NCBI GenBank assembly: GCA_012813795.1
Contig: GCA_012813795.1_4087.1
DNA length: 64,000 nt
Origin: a phage
Strand: one strand, 5' to 3'
Shown here: positions 16,017 to 41,442 of the stretch, piece by piece
How the letters are laid out: each line of letters begins with the position of its first letter
How positions within the stretch are numbered: position 1 is the stretch's first letter
The notes under the pieces: generated by a model
Told to the model about the DNA's origin: nothing
What the model saw: only the letters and a program-made list of their open reading frames with translations
Database searches by the model: none
Position numbers and translations under genes: made by a program

Positions 16017-18716
16017 TTACCAATTCACATTACCAGAACTTGAAGGGAACCCAGAACTAACTGGGAAGGAACTTCCGGCAGCGTCGAATGATGAACCAAA
16101 CAGGTCTAAACGCGAACGTTTTTCTATATTAATTTCGGTTATTTGTAAATCATCAGTTTTCACTGTACCAATCCAGTATATTGAATGAGTTTCAGCTAAT
16201 TCAGTTGTTGATATGTGATAGTTTGCAATACCCTGTACTAATTTAATATACACATAAAATGTAGTATTGGCAGGATTTGCTTTCACAGTTGTTAAATCTA
16301 TATTTGATATTGGTAATTTATAGTGTTTACCTGATAGCAGTACTGGTGTCTCTTCGGTGAAGTATATAATAAAACCTTGAGCAACATCTTGGGAAACAAG
16401 ACATATAAATGGATTTCCTTTATCAGTCCATGCATTATAATCCGCTAATGTAGTACCATATGTTCTAAAAATTGTTTTGTTTGTATTATCTATACTTTGA
16501 AGAATACCAAACCCAATATTAGGTAAAGCGAATGGTTGACCATCTAATGCATAGATAGGACGTGCACCAGCTATATGGAAATTATTAAATTGGGCTGTCG
16601 CTTTATCCACTGTAGCACGGAAAAATGGAGAGTTTGTATTACCAACTGTATTAAAGAAACCTGGAATACCACCACCAATGAAGTAGAAAGAACCAGCATC
16701 ATATATAGTAATACCAATACTTCCACTATCAAGATGATATGCGGTATCTGTTTTGTAATCCCCAGCTTGAACACTTTCATGTACTAAACGTTTGAACGAC
16801 CATGTTGTAATATCACCAGTTCTTGTATTGACATTCAATTCAACAACTCGTACATATAAACCACGGGCTGTAGTAGATGCTGCAAGAACACCAAAAACAG
16901 GAATATCAGTTTGTTGTGGAACAAATACAGATAATGTTTTTATTGATTCTGGTGATATATTCCATGAACTAGCAACTTTAGCAAATTCGGAATTTCGAAT
17001 AGCATTCATTATATCTTGAGACATACTGATTGTACCATTATTCAGTACATTACCTTTATAATCAAAACTAATAGGAGTTGATGTTCTATTATCTGCCACC
17101 AAAACACCACCATTAGTAGTGACCGTTGAACCAGAAATTGAACTTATAAAAATTCTAGATTCTGGTGTAGTTATAAACGCTCGGTCTGGTGTTGGTTCAT
17201 AACCAGGAACAGTACCATAGTCTAGAGACTTAAATGTAAAGTTCGGTGTAGCTTTATGTACAGCATAGGATGGATAAAAACGACCATCACCAGAACGTCT
17301 TGAATATTGTTTAGTACTGTTATTTGGTAATAACTCTACACCTACTTGGTATGAACCAACTGCTGAACCAAATCTTGGTGATACTACACCATTAATAAAA
17401 TTAGTTGCTGATACACTTCTAACATTCATTAAATTAAACAATGACTGTGGTGGATATTTCGCATATGATAAGTTCAATGCTTCTGCGAGGTTTGGTGAGA
17501 ATGAACAAAATGCATCACCAGTTGATGGTACATAGCAATAATTACTAAAAATATTACGACCACCCGCGTGAAGATAAAATGGATCTTTTGTTATGCATTG
17601 ACCCGTTACATTCATACTTGAACCCGTGTCATTAACAGCAACTGGTGTAGTCGTTAACATATTATCTAATTTACATTGTTTTGTCACAACATCAAAAGTC
17701 ATACTAAAACCATGTTGTGGGCGTGTGTCATATCGTCCATTTGTCATCCACATATCACCACATAATCTAAATCTGAATTCGGATGTACCAGATTTCTGTG
17801 CAACATATAAATCTGGATCTGTCATATAAACACCAAACCCAATAATACCACTTGGAATTAAAACGTATGGATTATCATTGGTATTTGTTGAATTTATTTT
17901 CATAGTTGGAACAATATTGTCATCATATACCATTGCATTATAAAAAGTTCTTGTGGCCCAACCAGTAATTCTAGTAACACTATAAGTACCACCACCTGGG
18001 TTATTACTTGGACTAAAAGTAACTTTAGTAACGGATATTTTAAGAGTATTGCTTGGTGTATCTAAACTGAAAAAGTATAATGAACCATCTTCAGCACGAA
18101 TAACAAATTGTATTGCACCAAAAGGTTGTACGGCTGTATGGTCTGATAGAATAATACCAGTGTGCATTGTATCATTCATAGTACCATTATTGACTGAAAC
18201 AAAAACTCTATCAATATATGTACCATCAGAATTTTCAGTTCTCACCAAACCACAAGTAATATCATCACTGCTTGGATACAAATAAACTGCATACCCAGCA
18301 CCAAAATAATTTGGTTTATATGCACGAGTAGTATTAACCATACGACTTGTATTTGTTGTACCAACCGCCTGGGTCATATAACTATAATAAATCCCCTGTG
18401 TACTTCCATTAGTACCCGGACGTAACATTACTAAAGTGTTATCATCTTCCAAAAATAATTTTGTATTTCTGGAACTAGCATTTTCTGAAGAACCAACTGT
18501 TGTACCATTGACACCAGCAGGTAGATAGTTTTGTGTACCATAACGAGAAATGGGTAACATACCAACCATTTCCAGCATATCATCTTGTGTATATGCATCT
18601 ATTGTGAGATTGCCATTTTCATCAAATACGTTATCATTGATGCTCTGAACACTTCTCTTACCTTTGACTGTTACATTATGTGTAACATCAATGCCACCAT
18701 ATATTTTCTTTGCCAT
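16017..18716 (-). CDS. tail-fiber-like large structural protein (paralog A)
   Basis: 899 aa; N-terminal LPISRYGTQNYLP block and C-terminal SQDVAQGF...SSGFPSSSGNVNW shared with paralog B; ATG with AAGGGA RBS; late-promoter-like box upstream. Confidence 0.6.
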   Translation of the reverse strand: MAKKIYGGIDVTHNVTVKGKRSVQSINDNVFDENGNLTIDAYTQDDMLEMVGMLPISRYGTQNYLPAGVNGTTVGSSENASSRNTKLFLEDDNTLVMLRPGTNGSTQGIYYSYMTQAVGTTNTSRMVNTTRAYKPNYFGAGYAVYLYPSSDDITCGLVRTENSDGTYIDRVFVSVNNGTMNDTMHTGIILSDHTAVQPFGAIQFVIRAEDGSLYFFSLDTPSNTLKISVTKVTFSPSNNPGGGTYSVTRITGWATRTFYNAMVYDDNIVPTMKINSTNTNDNPYVLIPSGIIGFGVYMTDPDLYVAQKSGTSEFRFRLCGDMWMTNGRYDTRPQHGFSMTFDVVTKQCKLDNMLTTTPVAVNDTGSSMNVTGQCITKDPFYLHAGGRNIFSNYCYVPSTGDAFCSFSPNLAEALNLSYAKYPPQSLFNLMNVRSVSATNFINGVVSPRFGSAVGSYQVGVELLPNNSTKQYSRRSGDGRFYPSYAVHKATPNFTFKSLDYGTVPGYEPTPDRAFITTPESRIFISSISGSTVTTNGGVLVADNRTSTPISFDYKGNVLNNGTISMSQDIMNAIRNSEFAKVASSWNISPESIKTLSVFVPQQTDIPVFGVLAASTTARGLYVRVVELNVNTRTGDITTWSFKRLVHESVQAGDYKTDTAYHLDSGSIGITIYDAGSFYFIGGGIPGFFNTVGNTNSPFFRATVDKATAQFNNFHIAGARPIYALDGQPFALPNIGFGILQSIDNTNKTIFRTYGTTLADYNAWTDKGNPFICLVSQDVAQGFIIYFTEETPVLLSGKHYKLPISNIDLTTVKANPANTTFYVYIKLVQGIANYHISTTELAETHSIYWIGTVKTDDLQITEINIEKRSRLDLFGSSFDAAGSSFPVSSGFPSSSGNVNW

Positions 18717-18747
18717 ATATATCCCTTTTATCTAGATATCCATAGTG

Positions 18748-18755
18748 TATTTATA
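18748..18755 (-). promoter_or_regulatory. T4-type late promoter box TATAAATA (minus strand)
   Basis: Exact TATAAATA on the minus strand about 32 nt upstream of the fiber-A ATG, directly after a terminator. Confidence 0.4.
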
Positions 18756-18761
18756 ATAGTA

Positions 18762-18786
18762 TAAAAAAAGCACCCAAAGGGTGCTT
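18762..18786 (-). terminator. intrinsic terminator (minus strand)
   Basis: Stem AAGCACCC/GGGTGCTT with 3-nt loop, followed on the minus strand by T5-6. Confidence 0.55.
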
Positions 18787-18793
18787 CTTCATA

Positions 18794-18952
18794 TTAACCG
18801 CCGTGTTTAGAAAATTCAACTGCTCTTAATTGTTTAAGTGCTTCTTTTCTGGTTGGGTGACGACCGAGAACTTTCTTCCCTGTGTGGTCAGTAACAACCC
18901 ACTCATTTCCACGTTTCTGTATCTTTTCCGAAATAATATCAAGATAACGCAT
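18794..18952 (-). CDS. small basic protein (52 aa)
   Basis: Below track cutoff; MRYLDIISEKIQKRGNEWVVTDHTGKKVLGRHPTRKEALKQLRAVEFSKHGG; overlaps the nrdG 3' end by 14 nt; followed by the terminator. Confidence 0.4.
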   Translation of the reverse strand: MRYLDIISEKIQKRGNEWVVTDHTGKKVLGRHPTRKEALKQLRAVEFSKHGG

Positions 18953-19418
18953 AATCTACTCCTTTACGAAGAATACGTTGATTATTAGAGCCTCTAAATG
19001 GTAATTCTAAATTCTTTTCTTCAAGAATAAATTTACCATCAACTAATACATCAATGTACTCTAGTATTGCGGAGGCATGATTATTTATTATTTCCTCTAA
19101 AGTATAACCACTCCAGCACCAAATATCTTTATTTGGATATTTTTCTTTTACTACTTTACATAACTCAACAACAGTACTGATATTCTTTGGCATCAATGGA
19201 TCACCACCAAGAAGTGACAACCCTTGTACATATGGCTTGTTAAGTTCATTCAGGATGATATCAACTGTTTCAGTACTGAATTCTGAACCACTGCGATAAT
19301 CCCATGCTTTTTCGTTGAAGCATTCTTCACATCCGTGGCTACACCCTGAAACAAAAAGGGAGCATCTAACTCCCTCTCCATTGACTAAATCATCCTTGAT
19401 TATCGTCTGGTAATTCAT
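18939..19418 (-). CDS. nrdG: anaerobic ribonucleotide reductase activating protein (radical SAM)
   Basis: 159 aa; radical-SAM C-x3-C-x2-C cluster (CSHGCEEC) near the N-terminus; adjacent to nrdD. Confidence 0.85.
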   Translation of the reverse strand: MNYQTIIKDDLVNGEGVRCSLFVSGCSHGCEECFNEKAWDYRSGSEFSTETVDIILNELNKPYVQGLSLLGGDPLMPKNISTVVELCKVVKEKYPNKDIWCWSGYTLEEIINNHASAILEYIDVLVDGKFILEEKNLELPFRGSNNQRILRKGVDYALS

Positions 19419-19725
19419 CTAATATTGCACTCACTATTTCAACAAGAACATCTCCGTGACATGATTTGGGCTTACAAAAGCACCCAAGACGCTTCCCAGC
19501 CAATTCAAGTAGTTCTTCGATAGTAACCTCACCATTATCAATTCTTTGGATAAGATACTCTCTGAACTTCTCAATCGACTCTTCTCGTGTCGGAACTATA
19601 AACTCTGCCTTTGTTTGTTTGTCATTAATGTGGGTAAATGGATTTCCCCATTTAGACCCACGACCAATATACACATCATATGGTTCTTTATATTTGTTAA
19701 CTACAATTGGTTTTAAGTCCATCAT
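19390..19725 (-). CDS. conserved small phage protein (DUF4326-like)
   Basis: 111 aa; motifs [12 protein letters not shown] and [13 protein letters not shown]; inserted between nrdG and the GrcA-like gene. Confidence 0.45.
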
Positions 19726-20084
19726 AGACCTTTAGTAAAAGTACGATTGATTACATCATCTTGTTGTTCTTTTGTTAGTGAATTGAAACGAACTGCATAA
19801 CCACTAACACGAATTGTAAGTTGCGGATACTTTTCTGGATTATTTTGTGCATCAATGAGTTGTTCTTTAGATAGAACATTTACATTCAAGTGCTGACCAC
19901 CTTCAATATTCGGTGCGTGTTGAATTTCCACATCACGCAGTACCTCACCATCAAAAGTACTCAAAAGTACTTCATCATCTTCGGAAATGGTCTTTGATAC
20001 AATAATACGTGCAATATCATTTTCTATTAGCATGATAGTTCCACGGTGCTCACCAGACATGACTTGTTTACCTTGAATTGACAT
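19722..20084 (-). CDS. autonomous glycyl-radical cofactor (GrcA/YfiD-like, T4 Y06I-type)
   Basis: 120 aa; C-terminus [11 protein letters not shown]...[20 protein letters not shown]...Q.DVI.RTFT is near-identical to the glycyl-radical domain of GrcA. Confidence 0.85.
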
Positions 20085-20093
20085 AATATCTCC

Positions 20094-21899
20094 TTACATG
20101 TGTTGTATACGTTGAATAACTTCAGCTTGTTTACCTTTATTGAACGGGCGACTATTTGGGGCACTAAGATATCCCGAAACTCTGCGAATAACCGACATTG
20201 TGCGTTCATTGCGGTTGTCACATACCGGACAATGGAAACCATTTTTATCTACACTAAATTCACCCTCAAAATCACATTCAAAACACTTATCGACCTTCTG
20301 ATTAATACCAAAATATGGAATTTTAGTATAAGCAAAATTTATTAATGTTTCAAGTGCTTGTATATTATTAGCTAGATTTGGTGTTTCAACATAGCTAATA
20401 TTACCACCATTGCTTAGATAAGCAAAGTTTTCCTCATAATCCCATTTAGCAAAAGGTGTACTTTCAACCCATACTGGTTGATGGAATGAGTTAGTGATAA
20501 AGTCACGTTTCAGTACTGAAGGATGTTTTGCCTCAATACAACGTGCAAATTTATAACATAGTGATTCTGCTGGTGTACCGTAAAGACTAAATGCAATGTT
20601 ACTCTCTTTTTTGAATTCATCACATTTTGCTTTCATGTAGTTCAAAATACTCATACAGAACTCTTTACTAATAGAACCAGTGAGGATCTCTGAACACTCA
20701 GATAACCCAACATAACCAATACTGATACTAGCATAACCATTATAAAATAAATGGTCAATAGTGTCTTCAGGATCAAGACGTGCAATCGCACCTTCAGCGA
20801 AAAGTATAGGGTTTTGTTTTGCCTTTGTACCTTTTAAACGTTCTACACGGTTCATCTGTGCTCTGTAAGCAATATTCATGTGCTCATCAATCTTATCAAA
20901 GAAATCACCATCAGACTCACTCTCAAGAGCAATTAGTGGTAAGTTGATAGACACAACGCCAAGGTTGAATCTACCATTGTATTTTTCTTCTCCTTGTATA
21001 TTTTCCCATTTCCCTAAGAAACTTCTGCATCCCATAGGAGTAACAGGAATAGTTGTGCTTCCAGTAACTTTTTGATTCAAAGGTACGGATACAAAATCAG
21101 GATAGATGCGTTTAGCTGCACAACGCATAGCTAATTGTTTTAAGTCATAATTACAATCAGTACTGTTCATATTAATTCCATCCTGAAGAAAGAATATTAC
21201 TTTAGGAAATACTGGAGTAATCTTATCTTTACCTAGTCCATTTTCATGTACTTTCAAATATTGTTCAGTGATTAGTTTTTCAAATTTAGATGTACCTAAT
21301 CCTAAACTCAAAGAAATGAACGCAGCCTGGCCATTAGTACTGATCATTGAGTTTGTTTGATATAGAATTGTTTGACAACCGTCATAAACTTCCTTACGCA
21401 ACTCATCTTCGATGAATTCAGTGCTAAGATTGTATTTCTTTTGTTTTTCTAGGAGTTTATCCCATGACTTTTGTACATATGGTGCAAGGCCAGTGTCAAT
21501 GTGAGCCAACGACTGACCACCGTATTGTGAGCTTGCAACAGCCTGAACGATCTGGGTTAGTACTGTACAAGCTACCCCAAAGCTTTTTGGTTCTTCAATC
21601 TTGGCACAACCAATCATGAAGCCATTAGCAAGCATATCAGGATAATTAACTAAACAACAGTTTGTTAATGGGCTAATGTAATAGTCTAAATCATGAATAT
21701 GACCGTAACCTTCATTATGCCACTTCATCAATTCATCAGGAATCACATCTTGGGAATAATGTTTAGAAAGAATACCTGCCAATAAATCACGATGTGTATT
21801 AACACATTTAGCGTCTTTATTTGCATTTTCGTTTGTTAAATCAGCGTTACTCTGGTTGAGGAAGTTAGTTACGTCCGTATATAATTTATCTATTTGCAT
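20094..21899 (-). CDS. nrdD: anaerobic ribonucleoside-triphosphate reductase
   Basis: 601 aa; C-terminal Zn-ribbon (CFECD...CPVCDN) followed by glycyl-radical motif RRVSGYL; ATG at 21897-21899 with AAGGAA RBS. Confidence 0.9.
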   Translation of the reverse strand: MQIDKLYTDVTNFLNQSNADLTNENANKDAKCVNTHRDLLAGILSKHYSQDVIPDELMKWHNEGYGHIHDLDYYISPLTNCCLVNYPDMLANGFMIGCAKIEEPKSFGVACTVLTQIVQAVASSQYGGQSLAHIDTGLAPYVQKSWDKLLEKQKKYNLSTEFIEDELRKEVYDGCQTILYQTNSMISTNGQAAFISLSLGLGTSKFEKLITEQYLKVHENGLGKDKITPVFPKVIFFLQDGINMNSTDCNYDLKQLAMRCAAKRIYPDFVSVPLNQKVTGSTTIPVTPMGCRSFLGKWENIQGEEKYNGRFNLGVVSINLPLIALESESDGDFFDKIDEHMNIAYRAQMNRVERLKGTKAKQNPILFAEGAIARLDPEDTIDHLFYNGYASISIGYVGLSECSEILTGSISKEFCMSILNYMKAKCDEFKKESNIAFSLYGTPAESLCYKFARCIEAKHPSVLKRDFITNSFHQPVWVESTPFAKWDYEENFAYLSNGGNISYVETPNLANNIQALETLINFAYTKIPYFGINQKVDKCFECDFEGEFSVDKNGFHCPVCDNRNERTMSVIRRVSGYLSAPNSRPFNKGKQAEVIQRIQHM

Positions 21900-22036
21900 T
21901 TCACATTCCTTGTATGTTATTCGTTTGGGTGAATTTATTTAACTTCAACAAAGAGCATTATAGCCTCATATTGGCCTTTTTCTCTTGACCTAAATCAAGG
22001 AAAAGTGCAATTGATTAAGTACTGTACAAACACAAA

Positions 22037-22055
22037 AAGCACCACTTGGGTGCTT
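22037..22055 (-). terminator. candidate intrinsic terminator (minus strand)
   Basis: Stem AAGCACC/GGTGCTT followed by a short T-run; stem sequence is the same family as the hairpin at 18768. Confidence 0.4.
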
Positions 22056-22132
22056 TATAGAATAGACAAAATAACAACTGACCAGATTAGCATAACATAT
22101 AAATTGCAATTACACAGCATCCAATGAATAGT

Positions 22133-22720: not shown

Positions 22721-22942
22721 TTATTCCTCGTTTTCATTTGGAATACAATATACAAATACTAAATGCTTAAAGTGATCAGTACTGGAATATAATGCCAATT
22801 CATGTAATGGGAAATTTGTATCTTTAAATTTACCATTTTCGTATATAGTTATTTGTAACGAATGTTTTGGCTCAAAAATATAATAGTACATTATTGATTC
22901 ACCAAAAAGTACAGTATGGTGCTGATATCGTTCAATTTTCAT
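22721..22942 (-). CDS. hypothetical protein
   Basis: Track ORF 22721..22990 trimmed to the ATG (MKIERYQ) that overlaps the upstream TGA stop as ATGA. Confidence 0.5.
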   Translation of the reverse strand: MKIERYQHHTVLFGESIMYYYIFEPKHSLQITIYENGKFKDTNFPLHELALYSSTDHFKHLVFVYCIPNENEE

Positions 22943-23307
22943 GTATGGATAATCTCTTTTACCCCGTACTCCTGAATTGCTAATGTACAAATCTCACAAG
23001 GTTTAGCTGGTACTGGGATACCATCTTTGCTTACACGAGCGATAAGAAGAGTATGTACTTCAGCACGAGCAGCAAGAAGACACGAAATTTCAGCGTGTAA
23101 AAATTCCCCTTGTGGACGACCAGCACGAATTGCAAAGCCTTTCTGCTTAGGGTGAGTCTGTGTGTAAGAGTTGGTACGAGTAGCCAGTACTCGACCTTTC
23201 TTATCCAGTGCACGAGCAATTACTCTATACCGTTTGTAATTGCCAACTTGTTCAATCGGCGGCATCTCACGGAGTTCTTCTACCAGTTTAAGCAATTTCG
23301 GGTTCAT
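22939..23307 (-). CDS. small cytidine/deoxycytidylate-deaminase-fold protein
   Basis: 122 aa; zinc-deaminase motifs HAE (HAEISCL) and PCxxC (PCEIC); distinct from the canonical dCMP deaminase at 43989. Confidence 0.65.
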   Translation of the reverse strand: MNPKLLKLVEELREMPPIEQVGNYKRYRVIARALDKKGRVLATRTNSYTQTHPKQKGFAIRAGRPQGEFLHAEISCLLAARAEVHTLLIARVSKDGIPVPAKPCEICTLAIQEYGVKEIIHT

Positions 23308-33899: not shown

Positions 33900-36800
33900 A
33901 TGAAACCAATAGCTGGCTTAGATCAATTTCCATTTGTTATAGGTGGATTGCAGGTTACTGCTGCAAAGATAGAAGGGCAAGTATTTGTTAAAGAATTGTA
34001 TGTTATAAAACAAAGAACATTCGATTCGTATGATTTGATATCTGAAAATTTCAAGATTTACAAAGATATAAAAATCACAGGTAGAAATAAAGATAAATCA
34101 ACATTGACGTATGATGATGACGATGCTGAAATTGCTAAATCTTTAGCAAATAATACATTTTGCATAAAAGAATCTGATGATTTTAACAAAAAATATGGTT
34201 TTGGTATACAATATCAATTGAATAAAATAAAATTACATAATGGTGAAGTGATATTTAGACAATCCTCAATTCGACCATCAGTACTTAATGGTGTTTTCAT
34301 TACACCGAGTTCATTTGAGATTGATGTTGGTCAACAACAAGTATTTGACGCGATATATGATCCACAAAGTTGGATTAATAAAAATGGTACTTGGGATTAT
34401 GATAAATCAGTTTTTGATGTGGTTTCTTTTACACAAACATCAATCACACTTCTCGCTAAACAAGATGCCATTAATACAGAAATAAAATATTCACCTACTG
34501 GACGAGAAATAAATCGCATAGCAGTCAGTATAGGTTCAGTAGTAGATAACACTTCTATAATTAAAAACATTTCAATAACACCTAATGTCATAAATTCCAA
34601 ATTATCTGAAGATTTTACAGTTAATGTAGTTTATGATCCTATCAAATATAAATTCAAATCAGGTAAATGGTCTGTCAGTGATACATCAGTACTACAATTT
34701 GTTTCTGGTGATGGTGAAACTGCGACATTTAAACCTATCAGCGTTGGTTCTTCCACAATAACATTCACATTAGATAAAGATAGTACAAAAACTGCAACTG
34801 CATCAGTTGAAGTATCTTATGCAGATTTAAAATCCGTCACAATATCACCAGAAAATGTAACTGGTACTATAGGTGAAACTGGTAGTATTTCAATAAGTTA
34901 TGTACCAGATAATGCACAAAAAGGTGGTTCATGGGCTATTTCTGATAAATTAATACTAAAAGAATTATCATCGACAATATCAGAATTTGATTATGAATTG
35001 GTTGGTAATGGAACAACATATGCTACATTCGTCCCATTAGCTAATTATGATGGTTCAATGATAACTGCTAAATTTGATGTTAACTATTCAAAACTTGAAA
35101 ACATTGTTCTTACACCTTCATCAGTTAGTAATCTAGTTCCAGGCGACACAGGAAAAATTAGTATTGAATATACACCAAGTACTGTTGAAACTGGTGGTAC
35201 ATGGTCATTCAATCCAACTGGTGTAATAGAACAAGATCTCAGCAAAAGTACGAGTACTGAAATGTATTATAATGTATTAATCCCAGGTACATCAACTGCA
35301 ACATTCCACCCAACTGCGTCATATGATGGAACTCCTAAAACTGTTTCATTTGAAGTTGGGAATTCCGAGTTAACTGGTATTACGCTAACACCTACTACAT
35401 CAACCGTAAAAATTGGTGATGATTTCTATATTGATATTACATATGAACCAAACACTGCTCTACATGAAGGTACATGGAATACATCAGATTTTGAGAAATA
35501 TGTAACACTCGAATCAGATAGTACACCTGATCGTGCACATTTTAAAGCTATAGGTGTGATTGATTCTGTTAATCTGACATATTCAAAAGGAACAATTAGT
35601 GCAACTAACAAATGTGCAGTTAATTATTCTGATTTAAAATCTATCACATTAAGTCCAACTGCAACATATGCTAAACTTGGTGATGATTTCTATGTAGATA
35701 TTGCATATGATCCAGACACAGCACAACACACGGGTTCATGGAATACATCAGATTTTGAGAAATATGTAACACTAGAATCAGATAGTACACCTGACCGTGC
35801 ACACTTCAAAGCAATTGATTTAGTTGATGAAGTTGATTTGGTATATTCGAATGGTAATATAAGTGATACGAATTATTGTGGAGTTAGTCGTCCACCATTA
35901 ATTTCAGTTTCATTGTCACCTTCTTCTGAAAAAGTTAAAGTTGGTGATTCCTTTAATGTGAAGATTACATATAACCCTAATACTGCTCAACATTACGGTG
36001 AATGGAATTTGGATGAAATAAAAGAATATCTTACATATGATTCGGATCTTAGTGTTTATGATGTGGCTGTGTTTGATGTTATTAAACGTTCTGAAACACC
36101 AATAGAATTGAAATTTACAAGTGCAGGTAAAACTGCAACAAACACTTGTGAATTTGAAGAAGCTGTGTTAACCGGAATTTCATTGAAAATACAAGAAAAT
36201 ACGCCAATATACGACAGCCTATATGTTGTACCATATAAAGGTGACATATATATTGATGTTCTACCTATTCCAGCCGACGCAAAATTACCAGACGATATTG
36301 GAACCATCACTGATAATACGGGATTATATGATTTAACGTTTTTTGATTTTTTGAGTTTTAATAAAGAAAAAAGTACAAATCACCGTTTGTATTTTGATTT
36401 TGTTTCATCATTTGATGAGTATATGTATTTTATTGAGGAATCTTCAAAAGGATTAATATTCACATATACACTGTCTAATGGTATGACGGTAGACTCACCG
36501 GCAATGGTAACAAATTTTCCAGAACTGACGAAAGTCACCCTTGTGCCATCATCTGGAAAATGTGATGTTAACTCAATAATAAAATGCGAGGCAACACTTG
36601 ATAATGGTATGTCAACTTATTATATTAATCCGTTGAGTACTTATACAAGTGAACACGAGGATTATTTGGTAATTGAAGATAGAACATCCTTTCAGCCGTT
36701 TGATGAATTCCTTGAACCAATTGAAATTGTAGGTAAACTTCCAACAAATATATATGTACCAGATGGTAATTACGTATATTTCACATATACACTATCAACC

Positions 36801-37187
36801 ACACCTGCCCAACCGTTGATTGATTATAATATTTACATATATGATAGTAATGAATGTATAAAAGGACGTATAAAAAATCCAACAGACGTAGTTAACATAA
36901 AATATATGAATGTCTTTTTCTTTGACATAGAGAATAATCCACCAAATGCTTTATATAGAGGAAAAATGGAAGGTGGTATTCCTGTTACGTTTCAATATGA
37001 CACCCAAAATTCTAGATTAAATTCGTATACTTATATGGTACAGGGGGTAACTGATGGACCAATAACTCTAAAATACACTTCATCTGCTACTGGTGTTATT
37101 AGAACTGCACAAGTTGATGTTACTGGACCAATGACTGATGATAGTAATAAAACTGATGAGGGGGGTGATGGTGATTTACTTAAATGA
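33900..37187 (+). CDS. large Ig-like (Big_2-type) repeat protein 1
   Basis: 1095 aa; about 7 tandem ~90-aa units with the recurring pattern ...TP..(V/K)(L/I).GD.F...I.Y.P.TA.H.G.W...; distinct ~330-aa C-terminal region. Confidence 0.75.
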   Translation: MKPIAGLDQFPFVIGGLQVTAAKIEGQVFVKELYVIKQRTFDSYDLISENFKIYKDIKITGRNKDKSTLTYDDDDAEIAKSLANNTFCIKESDDFNKKYGFGIQYQLNKIKLHNGEVIFRQSSIRPSVLNGVFITPSSFEIDVGQQQVFDAIYDPQSWINKNGTWDYDKSVFDVVSFTQTSITLLAKQDAINTEIKYSPTGREINRIAVSIGSVVDNTSIIKNISITPNVINSKLSEDFTVNVVYDPIKYKFKSGKWSVSDTSVLQFVSGDGETATFKPISVGSSTITFTLDKDSTKTATASVEVSYADLKSVTISPENVTGTIGETGSISISYVPDNAQKGGSWAISDKLILKELSSTISEFDYELVGNGTTYATFVPLANYDGSMITAKFDVNYSKLENIVLTPSSVSNLVPGDTGKISIEYTPSTVETGGTWSFNPTGVIEQDLSKSTSTEMYYNVLIPGTSTATFHPTASYDGTPKTVSFEVGNSELTGITLTPTTSTVKIGDDFYIDITYEPNTALHEGTWNTSDFEKYVTLESDSTPDRAHFKAIGVIDSVNLTYSKGTISATNKCAVNYSDLKSITLSPTATYAKLGDDFYVDIAYDPDTAQHTGSWNTSDFEKYVTLESDSTPDRAHFKAIDLVDEVDLVYSNGNISDTNYCGVSRPPLISVSLSPSSEKVKVGDSFNVKITYNPNTAQHYGEWNLDEIKEYLTYDSDLSVYDVAVFDVIKRSETPIELKFTSAGKTATNTCEFEEAVLTGISLKIQENTPIYDSLYVVPYKGDIYIDVLPIPADAKLPDDIGTITDNTGLYDLTFFDFLSFNKEKSTNHRLYFDFVSSFDEYMYFIEESSKGLIFTYTLSNGMTVDSPAMVTNFPELTKVTLVPSSGKCDVNSIIKCEATLDNGMSTYYINPLSTYTSEHEDYLVIEDRTSFQPFDEFLEPIEIVGKLPTNIYVPDGNYVYFTYTLSTTPAQPLIDYNIYIYDSNECIKGRIKNPTDVVNIKYMNVFFFDIENNPPNALYRGKMEGGIPVTFQYDTQNSRLNSYTYMVQGVTDGPITLKYTSSATGVIRTAQVDVTGPMTDDSNKTDEGGDGDLLK
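35415..35825 (+). repeat. near-identical intragenic tandem duplication (period about 273 bp)
   Basis: Two copies sharing an almost identical ~60-bp core (catggaatacatcagattttgagaaatatgtaacact.gaatcagatagtacacctga), encoding the duplicated peptide SDFEKYVTLESDSTPDRAHFKAI. Confidence 0.8.
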
Positions 37188-37223
37188 TTATAAATTAATT
37201 TTAATGCTAAGGAGAAATATTTT

Positions 37224-39743
37224 ATGGCAGAATTAAAATCAATTAGATTTAACAATAATGGTGTTGTAAACAGCACCATTTATAAAACCAGTACTATAAC
37301 GGTTACATATGACCCAGTTGATTGGTATGATCAAACTGGGAAATGGGTATATGATAGTACGTATATTAAAGTGTTGTATAGGAGTGGTGAGAAACTTATT
37401 TTCAAAACACTCAAAGAAGGAAACACAAATATATCATTTTCACCAACTAATTATGATTCTTTAAAACAAACGTGTACTGTTGATATTCATACCGATACAG
37501 TTCAAAGTATCTCATTGAATCCAACTGAAAACATGTTGAAGTATAGTTCTGAATTTGAAATCGATGTCACTTATAACCCACCAATTGGCACGGATCTTCC
37601 AACATGGACATATGATAAAAATGTTTTAACATATGATGCTGAAAAAAGTACAAGGGATAAAGCTTTCTTTAAAGTAAATTCTAGTGTTTTAAGTCCAGTA
37701 TCAGGTAAGATTACATGTACGTATGGTGTAGATTTATCAGCGGAAAGTTTTTATTACGTGTCCGAAAACCCCGCATCACGTGTAAAATTGTCTCCTGATA
37801 CATCAAACGTACTACTTGGTGATACGTTCTCAGTTAATATTTTATATGATCCACTTGGGTGTGATAAAACTGGTGTATGGAGTTACGATGATACATGTCT
37901 TGAATACAACGAATCACGCTCAACTTCTGATGTTGCATATTTTAAAGCAATTAAAACACCAGAAGGAAATAATGACACGTTAAAATTAACATATAAATGT
38001 GCATCATCCGTGTCCGATTCAACAACGTGTACAATATCATATGATCCATTGCAATCAGTTAAATTGACAACAATCCCAGCTTCATTGAATCCAGATGCAA
38101 TGATAAACGTAAAAGCTGGGGATGGGTTTAGTGTTAAGGTCACATATGTCCCAGACACCGCCAGACATGATGGTGTTTTGAATTTTAACCCACTATATTT
38201 CACCTATGAAAAAGACCAATCTGCACAAGACACTTTTTTAATCACACCAATTCTACCATCTATAGACACTGATGAACCTGTGCAGCCGATATCTTTTACT
38301 TCTAACGGGATTATATCAAATATACTCAATTTCACAATAGATTATTCTGACCTTGTTTCGGTATCTTTTGACCCACCAGAAGTTAATACAACCGCTGGTT
38401 CTGTATTTGGTGTAACTGTGATTTATAATCCAAGCACAGCTAAAAATGACGGTGAATGGAACATTGCTAATGTTCTGGATTATATTAAAAAAGGAACAAC
38501 AGTCGGTGATTCAACTTCATTCCAATCTTTGAAAGCCACAGTTGATAGTGATGGAAACCCATCAAGTATAGATATGGTTTACAAAAGTGGTTATATCAGT
38601 ACACCTATTAAATGTAACATTGATTATAGTGAGTTGAAATCTATTAATGTAAAATGTGATCCGTCATATCCACTGAATACTTCTCTTGGGATAATAGCAA
38701 CATATACACCAGACACCGCAAAACATGATGGTGTATGGACATGTTCATCAGATTTAATTCCAGGTGCATCTACTCCAGATCTTGGGTCATTCCGTACAGG
38801 TAAATTAGTAAATGCAAAAAGTGTAGTTACTGTAACATCTAAATCCAATAAAGATATTGGTGCATCATGTGGATTTACCTCAACTTATTCTAAGTTAAAA
38901 GGTATAACAGTAACACCACTTGGAACAACAACAGTTAAACCTGGTGATTCATTTGGTATACAAATATCGTATAATCCAAACACTGCACAGCATCTTGGTA
39001 TGTATAATTGGGATTTTAACCCTGATTATTTTGAATATAACTATGAGTTGTCAGAGCCAAACAAAGATATACAATATTTTAATGCTTTATTACCCACACC
39101 AGAAGAAGGTTCAGTACTAACATGTCTCCCACCTGAAGGGTCTGGTGCTACATCTGGTAAATGTGTAATAACCGTTAGTTATCCTCCAATCAAATCAGTG
39201 TCTATTGAACCACCTGAATCAACTCATAAATTTGGTGATGTGTTCAACCTTATCGTGAAATATGATCCAGATACAGCAAGAAAAATGGGTACATGGGAAT
39301 ATGATAAAGATCGAATAGCATTAGTTAATCCGGTAACCGACCTTAACGATCAAGCAACATTTTATGTTATCAATAACGGTATAGGTGGAGAAACGGATAT
39401 ATCATATTCATATTATCCAGGCGTAACTGCAACACATAAGTGTACTGTAGAATATGAAAACTTGGATACCCTAAGTTTAGTTCCTCCAAGAATCAAGAAA
39501 AAACCAGGTAATACTTTCTATATAAAAATCATATACACACCAGATGGTGCATTACATGATGGTACATGGACATACAATAAAACTGTATTTGAATATACAC
39601 AGGAAAGTACTAAAGATTTGGGAGTTTTTAAAATTTCCGACACTGCTCCTGAAGGTGCATACCAATTATCATATCAACCAAAAACTGCTGATCCAGATCA
39701 AACATTCCCACCTGTAATTTTACAATGCACTATTACAAAATAA
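37224..39743 (+). CDS. large Ig-like repeat protein 2
   Basis: 839 aa; about 9 repeat units of the same type; GGAGAAA RBS. Confidence 0.75.
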   Translation: MAELKSIRFNNNGVVNSTIYKTSTITVTYDPVDWYDQTGKWVYDSTYIKVLYRSGEKLIFKTLKEGNTNISFSPTNYDSLKQTCTVDIHTDTVQSISLNPTENMLKYSSEFEIDVTYNPPIGTDLPTWTYDKNVLTYDAEKSTRDKAFFKVNSSVLSPVSGKITCTYGVDLSAESFYYVSENPASRVKLSPDTSNVLLGDTFSVNILYDPLGCDKTGVWSYDDTCLEYNESRSTSDVAYFKAIKTPEGNNDTLKLTYKCASSVSDSTTCTISYDPLQSVKLTTIPASLNPDAMINVKAGDGFSVKVTYVPDTARHDGVLNFNPLYFTYEKDQSAQDTFLITPILPSIDTDEPVQPISFTSNGIISNILNFTIDYSDLVSVSFDPPEVNTTAGSVFGVTVIYNPSTAKNDGEWNIANVLDYIKKGTTVGDSTSFQSLKATVDSDGNPSSIDMVYKSGYISTPIKCNIDYSELKSINVKCDPSYPLNTSLGIIATYTPDTAKHDGVWTCSSDLIPGASTPDLGSFRTGKLVNAKSVVTVTSKSNKDIGASCGFTSTYSKLKGITVTPLGTTTVKPGDSFGIQISYNPNTAQHLGMYNWDFNPDYFEYNYELSEPNKDIQYFNALLPTPEEGSVLTCLPPEGSGATSGKCVITVSYPPIKSVSIEPPESTHKFGDVFNLIVKYDPDTARKMGTWEYDKDRIALVNPVTDLNDQATFYVINNGIGGETDISYSYYPGVTATHKCTVEYENLDTLSLVPPRIKKKPGNTFYIKIIYTPDGALHDGTWTYNKTVFEYTQESTKDLGVFKISDTAPEGAYQLSYQPKTADPDQTFPPVILQCTITK

Positions 39744-39770
39744 TAGACTGAAATTACTTTACAAAAAAAA

Positions 39771-39792
39771 TGTGGTTGAATATTCAACCACA
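39771..39792. repeat. perfect 22-bp palindrome
   Basis: TGTGGTTGAATATTCAACCACA preceded by A8, 20 nt upstream of the RBS of 39814. Confidence 0.7.
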
Positions 39793-39813
39793 TAATAAGA
39801 AGGAAACATAATT

Positions 39814-41439
39814 ATGATAGAAGATTCAAAAAATCTTATTTCAGTTAGTTTAAACAAAAGAACTATTAGAACTTCTGTTCGTGATGTTAACACATTATAT
39901 GTTAGTTTTAATCCACCTGACTATATTAATCAGGTTGGAACATGGACATATGATGAACAGTATATTGAAATGATCACACAAGATAATTTGGTTTTTGTTT
40001 TTAAATCTATAAAAAGTGGTGTAACCACCATAACATACACACCACGTGATAATAAAGCATTATCGAAGAATTGTATAGTTAATATTGAAAAAATACCATT
40101 ATCATCAATTAGTCTTAACCCAAATTATATAACTTTATACAAAGGTCAAACTTTTGATATTGATATATCATATATCCCAGATGGAGCAGTTCATTCGGGT
40201 AATTGGAGTAATTTAAACAATGATATATTGTATATAGGTCAACAAAGTACACCTGATAAATCAAGAATGCAAGTACTAACAACTGATGCTAAGATGATAA
40301 CTTTATATTATACCAGTGGCGAAATATCAGTTCCTTTGAATTGTACTATATTGAACAACCCAGCAGATGAAATTATTTTCGATCCACCATCACCAATTAA
40401 TGTAACAGTTGGTGAGAGTTTTTTTGTAAACATAAACTATGCACCAGAAAATGCGGATAAGGTTGGATTCTGGGAATATGATGATTCAGTACTGATGTTA
40501 TTGAATGATAGTGATAAGGCATCCAGTGCACATTTTGTGGCTACCAAAAAAACCACATCAACTGGAACTGAACTTAAATTCCGTTCAGGTGATGTGTACT
40601 CAACGTTACAGTGCTTTATAACTCCTGGTGTTTTAGATTTATTAACATTAACACCTAGTTATGAAACGGTGGTTGTTGGTGACGCGTTTGACATTGGAAT
40701 AACCTATTACCCAGAAGACATAATTCACAAAGGTATATGGGAATATGATTCTACATATTTCAAAAAAATGTTCGATGACTCAAATACTGCAACATTTAGA
40801 TTAATCAAAAAATCCGACATACCATTAAAATTAAGATATATCTCTTATGGGAGAGCATTTAATAATATATGCACTACTGTTGAAAATGGTGATTTAGTTT
40901 CATTACAATTAAACCCTAATTCCGAATCAGTTGAGGTTGGTAAAAGTTTTGATATCGCAATAACATATAAACCTGATAATGCTTTACATAGTGGTATATG
41001 GGATTTCGATTCGGAATATATTAAATTGGAAAAATCAAGTACAGTGGATAAAGCAACATTTACAGTACTGAAATATAATCCAAATCCATTAACATTAACT
41101 TATAAATCAGGTAAAACAACTGCAACAAACAAATGTATTACTGTAAAAAATACACCAGTATTAAGTAGTATTAAAGTATCCCCAGAATCAACTGAAATGA
41201 AAGTTGGTGATACAGTATTATTATCAATTTCATACAACCCTAATACAGTAGAGCATATGGGAATGTGGTATTATGATAAAAAACTATTCAAATTAATAGA
41301 CACAGGTCAAACACATGACTATGGTATATTTGAATGCTTGGCGGTGTCAGACGCAAAATCACCAATAGTATTTTCAAGTGCTGGAAATGCTGATGCTTGT
41401 ATTGTCACAACTAAAGAAAAAACAACTAAAGAGGATTAA
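39814..41439 (+). CDS. large Ig-like repeat protein 3
   Basis: 541 aa; about 6 repeat units; AAGGAAA RBS. Confidence 0.75.
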   Translation: MIEDSKNLISVSLNKRTIRTSVRDVNTLYVSFNPPDYINQVGTWTYDEQYIEMITQDNLVFVFKSIKSGVTTITYTPRDNKALSKNCIVNIEKIPLSSISLNPNYITLYKGQTFDIDISYIPDGAVHSGNWSNLNNDILYIGQQSTPDKSRMQVLTTDAKMITLYYTSGEISVPLNCTILNNPADEIIFDPPSPINVTVGESFFVNINYAPENADKVGFWEYDDSVLMLLNDSDKASSAHFVATKKTTSTGTELKFRSGDVYSTLQCFITPGVLDLLTLTPSYETVVVGDAFDIGITYYPEDIIHKGIWEYDSTYFKKMFDDSNTATFRLIKKSDIPLKLRYISYGRAFNNICTTVENGDLVSLQLNPNSESVEVGKSFDIAITYKPDNALHSGIWDFDSEYIKLEKSSTVDKATFTVLKYNPNPLTLTYKSGKTTATNKCITVKNTPVLSSIKVSPESTEMKVGDTVLLSISYNPNTVEHMGMWYYDKKLFKLIDTGQTHDYGIFECLAVSDAKSPIVFSSAGNADACIVTTKEKTTKED

Positions 41440-41442
41440 ATC

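Follow-up and report, generated by a model that had tools for sequence, protein, structure and literature searches.

A Rak2-like jumbo coliphage carries what we consider, with fair confidence, to be a self-contained anaerobic dNTP operon, bounded by terminators, gated by the host regulator FNR and equipped with a spare part for PFL. The window (the whole 64,000-nucleotide stretch of phage DNA that was analyzed) shares 98.8% identity with Escherichia phage A4, one of the Rak2-like jumbo phages. Its minus strand holds five co-directional genes between 18794 and 21899, in the order nrdD, a GrcA-like gene, a DUF4326 gene, nrdG and orf52, followed by a strong terminator (Table 1).

In the model that we propose, host RNA polymerase would use a class II FNR-dependent promoter to transcribe the operon, as suggested by the motif, its geometry and its conservation. 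Since such a promoter depends on FNR, the oxygen-labile glycyl-radical proteins would be produced only under anoxia as sensed by host FNR, as is the case for the FNR regulon members nrdDG, yfiD and focA-pflB of the host (PMC3688515, PMC4009431). The operon would thus supply deoxynucleotides in an infected cell without oxygen. By extension from established biochemistry, the host PFL-activase would activate the GrcA-like protein, which would repair oxygen-cleaved PflB and so maintain the production of acetyl-CoA, ATP and formate; because formate is the reductant of T4/E. coli-type NrdD, formate from the repaired PFL could feed the phage NrdD encoded alongside. Whether a virulent jumbo phage in this way reads the host oxygen sensor, with an embedded PFL spare part feeding formate to NrdD in a self-feeding anaerobic dNTP circuit whose logic and regulation are borrowed from the host FNR regulon (yfiD, pflB, nrdDG), is in our judgment evenly poised. 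If the FNR box works, a lytic phage would here clearly have placed an auxiliary metabolic operon under a host environmental sensor, which would bear on gut phages at the oxic-anoxic gradient and on phage therapy in anaerobic niches.

Table 1. Features of the predicted operon and its flanks, in window coordinates.
Feature	Position	Strand	Basis
Intrinsic terminator of the operon	18763-18786 (hairpin 18768-18786)	-	AAGCACCC-TTT-GGGTGCTT then TTTTT
orf52, conserved basic protein, 52 aa	18794-18952	-	phrog_3684
nrdG, radical-SAM activase of NrdD, 159 aa	18939-19418	-	TIGR02491, Fer4_12
DUF4326 protein, T4 NrdA.1 homolog, 111 aa	19390-19725	-	PF14216
GrcA/YfiD/Y06I-like autonomous glycyl-radical protein, 120 aa, Gly95	19722-20084	-	Pfam, PDB, phrog_1209
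nrdD, class III (anaerobic) ribonucleoside-triphosphate reductase, 601 aa	20094-21899	-	Pfam, NCBIfam, T4 NrdD structures
Invariant TAAATA block in predicted 5' leader	21936-21941	-	alignment of 9 phages
Perfect -10 hexamer TATAAT, 22 nt after FNR-type box	21957-21962	-	sequence
FNR-type box TTGATTTAGGTCAA, predicted FNR site centered near -41.5	21985-21998	-	9/10 match to TTGAT-N4-ATCAA
Intrinsic terminator of upstream transcription unit	22036-22056	-	terminator scan; AAAGCACCCAAGTGGTGCTTT then TTGTGTTTGT

Gene content and boundaries of the operon

Judged by their profile and structure matches, the five ORFs are homology-supported genes rather than chance ORFs. A preliminary description, made from the sequence without database searches, had already named all five within this stretch, correctly to the base, and the identities that it gave are all borne out by Pfam, NCBIfam and phrog profile matches; the two small genes that it put between nrdD and nrdG are the GrcA-like and DUF4326 genes. 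Within the operon, gaps are at most 9 nt, or neighboring ORFs overlap. Gene order in relatives, which the preliminary description had proposed as a check, is conserved: A4, RaK2 and K64-1 show the identical order in their annotation. The gene content is therefore already known; the genes themselves are nothing new, and what interest there is lies mainly in the predicted FNR gating.

NrdD is a predicted formate-dependent class III RNR of the T4 type. It matches Pfam NRDD (E=7e-163), exceeds the thresholds of NF006732 (766 bits; cut-off 657) and TIGR02487 (529 bits; cut-off 326) and matches T4 NrdD structures with E=4e-167, sharing an identical finger loop (PMGCRSFL). Its glycyl radical motif RRVSGY at residues 572-577, with Gly576, aligns with that of T4 NrdD and is preceded on the N-terminal side by a Zn ribbon (C539/C542/C557/C560; CFEC at 539, CPVC at 557), and its thiyl Cys291, Met289 and Cys81 align with T4 Cys290, Met288 and Cys79. 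The active site is of the formate type, with a methionine two residues before the thiyl cysteine and a bottom-face cysteine, and without the third Cys/Glu of the thioredoxin type; formate is the reductant of the T4 and E. coli class III RNRs (PMC4390871). The activase NrdG exceeds its equivalog cut-off (TIGR02491, 200.8 bits against 126.1; Fer4_12, E=9e-53), and the cluster motif CxxxCxxC is present as CSHGCEEC. NrdDG was considered as the sole RNR of the phage and rejected as such: the window contains no NrdA/NrdB, yet class I NrdAB has been reported elsewhere in Rak2-like phages (PMC5259590).

The operon thus resembles E. coli nrdDG and T4 nrdD-nrdG in the catalytic, Zn and glycine motifs of NrdD, all of which are present, and in an NrdG above the equivalog cut-off. 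It differs from them in having two genes between nrdD and nrdG and one after nrdG, and this comparison with T4 nrdD/nrdG and E. coli nrdDG is also marked by the absence of a group I intron from the phage operon. No Rfam matches (RNA elements, intron) were obtained in the region at E<=0.1.

Terminators are predicted on both sides. The one downstream of the genes, also claimed in the preliminary description, proved to be a real hairpin followed by a T-run, with a dG of -16 kcal/mol and z=-6.35 (0/200 shuffles fold as well). The hairpin upstream of the operon is weaker (dG -10 kcal/mol, z=-2.7) and is kept in Asteriusvirus and Alcyoneusvirus relatives; it is predicted to insulate the operon from read-through. 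Neither this terminator nor the FNR-type promoter had been mentioned in the preliminary description.

A predicted FNR-type promoter upstream of nrdD

Upstream of the operon, TTGATttagGTCAA is followed by a 22-nt spacer and TATAAT, with no recognizable -35 element (AGAGAA occupies the 17-nt position). A generic sigma-70 scan did not call the nrdD promoter, a silence that we attribute to the missing -35. Transcription is predicted to start near 21950; the position of the box relative to this start, about -41.5, was computed from the -10 hexamer only, with the start taken 7 nt after the -10. The published FNR consensus reads TTGATnnnnATCAA, with activating sites centered at -41.5, and a 22-nt spacing to a perfect -10 without a -35 corresponds to class II activator geometry (PMC3688515). 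The predicted phage promoter shares its TTGAT-N4-ATCAA box 22 nt before the -10 and its lack of a -35 with the E. coli class II FNR promoters of yfiD, focA-pflB, dmsA and narG (PMC3688515), and Rak2-like phages use host-type RpoD promoters (PMC5259590). The operon has an FNR-type site upstream of its first gene as host nrdDG does (PMC4009431). Unlike the E. coli class II promoters, the predicted phage site lies on the genome of a virulent jumbo phage, and a second conserved element, TAAATA, stands in the leader. The host nrdDG promoter has two FNR sites, whereas the phage operon has a single class II-type box.

Conservation of this box was assessed in nine phages (A4, ph0011, 121Q, UE-S1, EJP2, RaK2, K64-1, pEa_SNUABM_12 and fHe-Yen9-04) representing four groups, and in all of them it is retained upstream of nrdD while the spacer diverges. 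The palindrome is perfect (10/10) in UE-S1, RaK2, K64-1, pEa_SNUABM_12 and fHe-Yen9-04, against 9/10 in the window. A4, ph0011, 121Q, UE-S1, EJP2, RaK2 and K64-1 have the 22-nt spacing from box to TATAAT in common; the Erwinia phage pEa_SNUABM_12 has a weaker -10 (TATTAT, at 23 nt), and that of the Yersinia phage fHe-Yen9-04 is unclear. Nine of the ten half-site columns are invariant, compared with 16/141 other columns (Fisher p=2e-7, for promoters that are homologous and hence not fully independent), and with 1/22 within the spacer.

The window is not enriched in such boxes, which it contains at chance frequency (10 found with up to one mismatch, 9.6 expected); the case for FNR accordingly rests on position and conservation. 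Composites of a box and a -10 were found 37 times in 2.8 Mb of phage DNA, 14 of these being the nrdD promoters considered here. Apart from the nrdD promoter, the window has no intergenic composite, and 50 kb of phage A4 yielded none. Neither FNR-controlled phage nrd promoters nor transcript maps of Rak2-like coliphages were found in the searchable literature. Because the operon sits behind a conserved, predicted FNR site, it is probably switched on only when oxygen is absent.

The GrcA-like protein and its linkage to nrdDG

The preliminary description had likened the 120-aa protein to GrcA/YfiD and T4 Y06I, and its homology to E. coli GrcA/YfiD and to Y06I (vs.6) is confirmed. Among PDB structures it matches PflB (E=3e-30) and GrcA (6OWR, E=2e-29), it is detected by Pfam Gly_radical (E=2e-17), and it belongs to phrog_1209, the phage vs.6 family (E=1.5e-50), with 60% overall identity to the T-even-type vs.6 of a Mosigvirus. 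The RVSGY glycine context, whose absence on alignment the preliminary description had named as grounds for dropping the homology, is present and contains Gly95. Like YfiD/GrcA and Y06I, the protein is standalone, of approximately 14 kDa, with a C-terminal radical domain that is 80% identical to GrcA and 81% identical to PflB (47/58, PflB residues 702-758). In contrast to E. coli GrcA and T4 Y06I, its N-terminal half has diverged (∼35% identity), which explains why it scores 126.7 bits, below the cut-off of 170, with the bacterial GrcA equivalog TIGR04365, even though its best matches are still GrcA models. The spare-part function of T4 Y06I was already shown in 2001, and E. coli YfiD and T4 Y06I are the only cases in which PFL-activase has been demonstrated to install the radical and oxygen-cleaved PFL to regain activity (PMC8683613).

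Linkage of grcA to nrdDG is specific to certain lineages. Among 80 viral loci with a GrcA-like gene, nrdD or nrdG lies within 10 kb in only seven, all from jumbo Rak2-like or Aeromonas T4-like phages; a general linkage was accordingly rejected, the contexts in T-even, Slopekvirus and T5-like phages being unrelated. Whereas the present gene sits inside the nrdD-nrdG operon, its counterparts occupy the vs region of T-even phages and the tRNA region of T5, and because most phage grcA genes (T-even, T5-like) lie away from nrdDG, the linkage is not needed for grcA function. The Aeromonas phages PX29 and Aeh1 also carry a PFL-type GrcA homolog physically linked to nrdD/nrdG. In their cluster, nrdD-nrdG-vs.6-nrdC-nrdH, grcA follows nrdG, DUF4326 and orf52 are lacking, and no conserved FNR box is found upstream. 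The one perfect palindrome of PX29 was rejected as a chance occurrence because it lies in nrdD coding DNA and is not kept in Aeh1-like phages.

Alternative readings and the variable small genes

The palindrome upstream of nrdD might not be an FNR site at all; as an operator for a phage regulator or a plain promoter element, it would leave the operon on an ordinary temporal program regardless of oxygen. Besides the chance frequency of such boxes in the window, this reading can draw on the sigma-like factors that Rak2-like phages encode (PMC5259590) and on the second invariant block: TAAATA resembles the late motif ATAAATA of the Rak2-like phage CBB (PMC5259590), and may be a late-type promoter variant or could constitute a second, FNR-independent promoter downstream. 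We nevertheless regard it as unlikely, as the positions that do not vary coincide exactly with the FNR half-sites TTGAT/TCAA, more distant relatives approach the perfect FNR consensus, and the site stands only before the one operon with oxygen-labile products. The host genera, Escherichia, Klebsiella, Erwinia and Yersinia, all belong to the group possessing FNR. Spacing, perfect -10 and missing -35 together match an activator of class II (PMC3688515), and FNR-dependent transcription is the interpretation that we retain.

Two further alternatives concern the genes behind this promoter. From the adjacency of the GrcA-like gene to nrdD, the preliminary description had suggested that its product could be a spare part for the glycyl-radical enzyme of the phage itself; in its full form, the proposal is that the small protein, activated by the adjacent NrdG, would restore reductase activity once oxygen has cleaved NrdD at Gly576. 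The two genes do adjoin within one operon with nrdG, and the linkage has arisen independently in Aeromonas phages. The adjacency argument is not supported, given how few viral loci share the arrangement and how far grcA lies from nrdDG in T-even and T5-like phages, and the radical domain is of the PflB type: around the glycine loop it is identical to the phage NrdD at only 14/36 positions (E=0.016). Furthermore, the glycine loop of NrdD is preceded by a Zn ribbon, which the small protein lacks, and the only enzymes with demonstrated spare-part rescue are formate-lyases (PMC8683613, PMC13450708). Rescue of NrdD therefore seems to us very improbable, and the GrcA-like protein is most likely a PFL-type spare part whose predicted target is host PflB. 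The interval between nrdD and nrdG could instead be a tolerated insertion slot in which grcA, DUF4326 and orf52 have gathered as unrelated small genes by chance, so that their arrangement would carry no functional meaning. Its content indeed differs among close relatives: EJP2 has nrdD-nrdG alone, 121Q adds DUF4326, ph0011 and UE-S1 add grcA as well, and A4, RaK2 and the window add orf52, while Erwinia phages hold other hypothetical genes in the slot. DUF4326 is moreover generally unlinked to RNR genes, one of which lies within 8 kb in 2/80 diverse viral loci, both Rak2-like. For the cluster as a whole, a chance gathering is nonetheless improbable, as grcA became linked to nrdDG in two phage lineages that are unrelated, independently and with differing gene orders, and as host grcA, pflB and nrdDG are under common FNR control (PMC3688515), which provides a regulatory reason for their co-location. 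The FNR box is kept in all variants of the slot (EJP2, 121Q, ph0011, UE-S1, A4, RaK2 and the window), and the predicted FNR gating offers a rationale for the repeated joining of grcA to nrdDG in phages. For DUF4326 and orf52, by contrast, the chance-slot reading probably holds: these two genes are variable cargo and not core parts.

The basic 52-aa ORF that had been reported to overlap the 3' end of nrdG does so by 14 nt and has 12 K+R against 6 D+E. Designated orf52, it matches phrog_3684 (E=1.4e-17), has homologs in 300 phage records and is 75% identical to the RaK2 ORF at the same position. It was not matched by any NCBIfam model, and an assignment to DUF2188 was rejected, its Pfam score of 16.4 bits (E=0.01) falling short of the cut-off of 22 and amounting to a resemblance only.

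The DUF4326 gene overlaps both of its neighbors, at its start with the grcA stop (ATGA) and at its end with 29 nt of nrdG. Its product scores 87.5 bits with PF14216, well above the Pfam gathering threshold of 25, is 43% identical to T4 NrdA.1 and shares the invariant motifs G-R-x-S...N and C-x-C-x-P-x-x-C-H-G-D. The preliminary description was thus right to call it DUF4326-like, but its "unknown function" holds only in part, since it corresponds to T4 NrdA.1 and has been predicted in the literature to be a rhodanese-phosphatase-like enzyme. Most plausibly, following that published prediction, the protein would be a small phosphatase-like enzyme acting on nucleotide or ADP-ribose derivatives. 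The T4 gene precedes nrdA (class I RNR), whereas the present gene lies between grcA and nrdG, and because so few of the 80 loci are RNR-linked, the nrdA.1-nrdA adjacency of T4 does not generalize; a general DUF4326-RNR linkage was rejected. In phrog_24867 and some records, DUF4326 is labeled 'NrdA-like ribonucleotide reductase', apparently for no other reason than the name NrdA.1; this annotation error is corrected here.

Operon layout and gene content in related phages

All five ORFs noted in the preliminary description were found on the minus strand, with unchanged limits, and form one tightly packed unit: nrdD and the GrcA-like gene are 9 nt apart, the grcA stop codon shares the bases ATGA with the start of DUF4326, and overlaps of 29 nt and 14 nt join DUF4326 to nrdG and nrdG to orf52. 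Family assignments, made from sequence, are strong. NrdD scores above two NCBIfam equivalog cut-offs (Pfam NRDD, E=7e-163) and NrdG above that of TIGR02491, the 120-aa protein contains a Pfam Gly_radical domain, and the 111-aa protein exceeds the DUF4326 threshold; we regard the gene identities as nearly certain. The basic 52-aa ORF reported over the nrdG 3′ end (12 K+R against 6 D+E) is indeed followed by a textbook intrinsic terminator (dG -16 kcal/mol, z=-6.4).

Features of the operon and its surroundings (window coordinates)
Feature	Position	Strand	Description
Upstream terminator	22036-22056		5′ of nrdD
FNR-type box	21998-21985	minus	TTGATTTAGGTCAA; between upstream terminator and nrdD ATG
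-10	21962-21957	minus	TATAAT; 22 nt after box
TAAATA block	21941-21936	minus	~15 nt past -10
nrdD	20094-21899	minus	601 aa
GrcA-like	19722-20084	minus	120 aa
DUF4326	19390-19725	minus	111 aa
nrdG	18939-19418	minus	159 aa
orf52	18794-18952	minus	52 aa
Operon terminator		minus	directly 3′ of orf52; AAGCACCC-TTT-GGGTGCTT, then T-run
T4-type late promoter motif	18748-18755	minus	TATAAATA
Structural (tail-fibre-like) gene	16017-18716		899 aa
dCMP-deaminase-like gene	22939-23307	minus	HAE...PCxxC motif
Plus-strand block	33900-43644	plus	four large ORFs (1095, 839, 541, 733 aa)

Positions 18700-22000 share 98.8% identity with Escherichia phage A4 (ON286972), an Asteriusvirus of 355 kb that belongs to the Rak2-like jumbo phages and whose record annotates the same five genes. 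The Klebsiella phages RaK2 and K64-1 share the gene order, and the two middle genes of RaK2 are already described in its record as homologs of T4 vs.6 and nrdA.1. Databases therefore already hold this gene content, and for this group such genes are known and unremarkable (1585 phage records contain GrcA-like genes and 2179 contain DUF4326 genes). The slot between nrdD and nrdG is variable among Rak2-like phages: EJP2 has nrdD-nrdG only, 121Q has nrdD-DUF4326-nrdG, ph0011 and UE-S1 have nrdD-grcA-DUF4326-nrdG, and A4, RaK2, K64-1 and the present phage add orf52 after nrdG, while Erwinia phage pEa_SNUABM_12 carries nrdD, three hypothetical genes, grcA, one hypothetical gene, nrdG and one small ORF. 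Outgroup genera carry grcA, so the simplest view is that the 121Q and EJP2 lineages lost it. The genes between nrdD and nrdG are variable cargo. The preliminary observation is confirmed and its interpretation partly right; new here are this cargo status, a predicted conserved FNR-type promoter and the probable PFL-type specificity of the GrcA-like protein.

The dCMP-deaminase-like gene, ~1 kb upstream of the operon and annotated likewise in A4, indicates that nucleotide-metabolism genes cluster in this part of the genome. Elsewhere, the plus-strand block breaks the otherwise minus-strand gene array, and both GC and AT skew reverse locally there.

The region upstream of nrdD

A second terminator upstream of nrdD implies that the operon needs its own promoter. 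The -10 there has no -35-like hexamer upstream, and a generic sigma-70 scan called no nrdD promoter. The host oxygen sensor FNR recognizes TTGAT-N4-ATCAA, centred at -41.5 in most FNR-activated promoters (PMC3688515); with the -10 at -12 to -7 of the computed, predicted start, the 14-bp box and 22-nt spacing would place the box centre at exactly -41.5. Such boxes are not enriched in the window (10 sites with at most one mismatch, 9.6 expected), so the case for this one rests on conservation. The same box precedes the nrdD ATG by ~90-105 nt in A4, ph0011, 121Q, UE-S1, EJP2, RaK2, K64-1, pEa_SNUABM_12 and the Yersinia phage fHe-Yen9-04, as a perfect palindrome in five of the nine. Invariant columns in the nine-sequence alignment fall at 9/10 half-site, 1/22 spacer and 16/141 other positions (Fisher p=2e-7). 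All Escherichia and Klebsiella phages compared have TATAAT 22 nt after the box; the Erwinia phage has 23 nt, then TATTAT, and fHe-Yen9-04 shows no clear -10 after the box. Scanning 2.8 Mb of phage DNA gave 37 composites of box plus -10, 14 of them the nrdD promoters of these phages, and the sole other composite in the window plus 50 kb of phage A4 is within coding sequence.

We therefore predict an operon insulated by terminators, with a phylogenetically conserved class II promoter of FNR type that host FNR probably activates under anoxia. The FNR regulon includes host yfiD (grcA), focA-pflB and nrdDG (PMC3688515, PMC4009431), and Rak2-like phages use host-type RpoD promoters (PMC5259590). A literature search found no paper describing FNR control of this operon. 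The testable prediction is that a host oxygen sensor gates the oxygen-labile enzymes of a lytic jumbo phage.

An inverted repeat, ACCCC-N7-GGGGT, lies within the box-to-(-10) spacer of pEa_SNUABM_12 (approximately L008:1040-1062) and fHe-Yen9-04 (approximately L014:7705-7730), is absent from the Escherichia and Klebsiella phages, and may form a hairpin or bind a further regulator. Aeromonas phage PX29 has a perfect FNR palindrome, TTGATTTCGATCAA (L007:1390-1403), 31 nt into the nrdD coding sequence as annotated; Aeh1-like relatives do not conserve it, and it probably arose by chance. The TAAATA block, invariant in the nrdD leader of all nine Rak2-like phages and with a semi-conserved TTCACC after it, is similar to the late motif ATAAATA of phage CBB and may be a second (late-type) promoter or operator. 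The perfect T4-type late motif lies between the operon terminator and the structural gene, and suggests that this phage has late transcription signals of the T4 kind.

Specificity of the GrcA-like protein

The resemblance of the 120-aa protein to GrcA and Y06I holds: its top matches among solved structures are E. coli PflB (E=3e-30) and GrcA/YfiD (6OWR, E=2e-29), with 47/58 and 47/59 identities, respectively, from GGQHLNVNV to the C-terminus, only ~35% identity in the N-terminal half, and 60% identity to T-even-type vs.6 (Y06I family). The radical domain is nearly invariant across eight aligned phages. As a caveat, the score (126.7 bits) falls below the NCBIfam curated bacterial GrcA cut-off of 170 bits.

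The protein's position beside nrdD had suggested a spare part, restoring oxygen-cleaved enzyme, for the phage's own NrdD. This reading is not supported: only 14/36 residues are shared with the NrdD glycine loop (E=0.016), against 47/58 with PflB, the Zn ribbon preceding that loop is absent, and rescue has been demonstrated for PFL only, YfiD and Y06I being activated by PFL-activase (PMC8683613, PMC13450708). We conclude from these comparisons that the protein is probably a PFL-type spare part, PFL-specific rather than NrdD-specific. Nor does the adjacency seen here hold as a general rule, since nrdD/nrdG lie within 10 kb of the GrcA-like gene in only 7/80 viral contigs carrying one (three Rak2-like jumbo phages and four Aeromonas T4-like phages). 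The latter have the order nrdD-nrdG-vs.6, unlike the present operon, so linkage arose at least twice; in T-even, Slopekvirus and T5-like phages grcA is located away from nrdDG, and as most GrcA-like loci have no nearby nrdDG, linkage is not required.

PFL is the cell's fermentative formate source. NrdD is of T4 type (E=4e-167 to T4 structures), with a conserved finger loop PMGCRSFL (Met289/Cys291) and Cys81, Met/Cys/Cys residues typical of the class III enzymes in E. coli and T4 that use formate (PMC4390871). Because PFL makes the formate that this NrdD type uses, co-expressing a PFL spare part is metabolically coherent; repair of PFL would sustain both energy supply and reductant for dNTP synthesis, a rationale that we offer tentatively.

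The last 59 residues of a T-even-type vs.6 (L010:3501-3863), from GGQHL onward, match E. coli GrcA exactly, with a difference (I versus V) at the preceding residue. GrcA and PflB are equally far from the jumbo-phage protein, which has LTKEQQ in common with PflB; this hints at separate acquisitions or different constraints.

orf52 and DUF4326

orf52 is a real, conserved, basic small protein (phrog_3684, E=1e-17; homologs in 300 phage records); its resemblance to DUF2188 is sub-threshold and was discounted. The DUF4326 protein is 43% identical to T4 NrdA.1, whose gene overlaps the nrdA start in T4, whereas here DUF4326 lies between grcA and nrdG. Proximity to RNR genes in only 2/80 loci argues that DUF4326 is not RNR-linked in general. 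A confident AF2 model (pLDDT 92) has a beta-strand, an invariant loop C-x-C-K-P-x-x-C-H-G-D and a helix. The preliminary family assignment stands, but its function is not entirely the blank described, since the Aravind group predicts a rhodanese-phosphatase-like enzyme with phosphates derived from ADP-ribose as substrates (PMC9503650, PMC7824862), the best available guess. In phrog_24867 and GenBank MW021753, PV159336 and PQ571289, homologs go under the name 'NrdA-like ribonucleotide reductase' or 'ribonucleoside-diphosphate reductase subunit', and the RaK2 paper names gp522 as NrdA; as DUF4326/NrdA.1 proteins are ~110 aa and do not resemble NrdA, these labels look like a naming error propagated from 'NrdA.1'.
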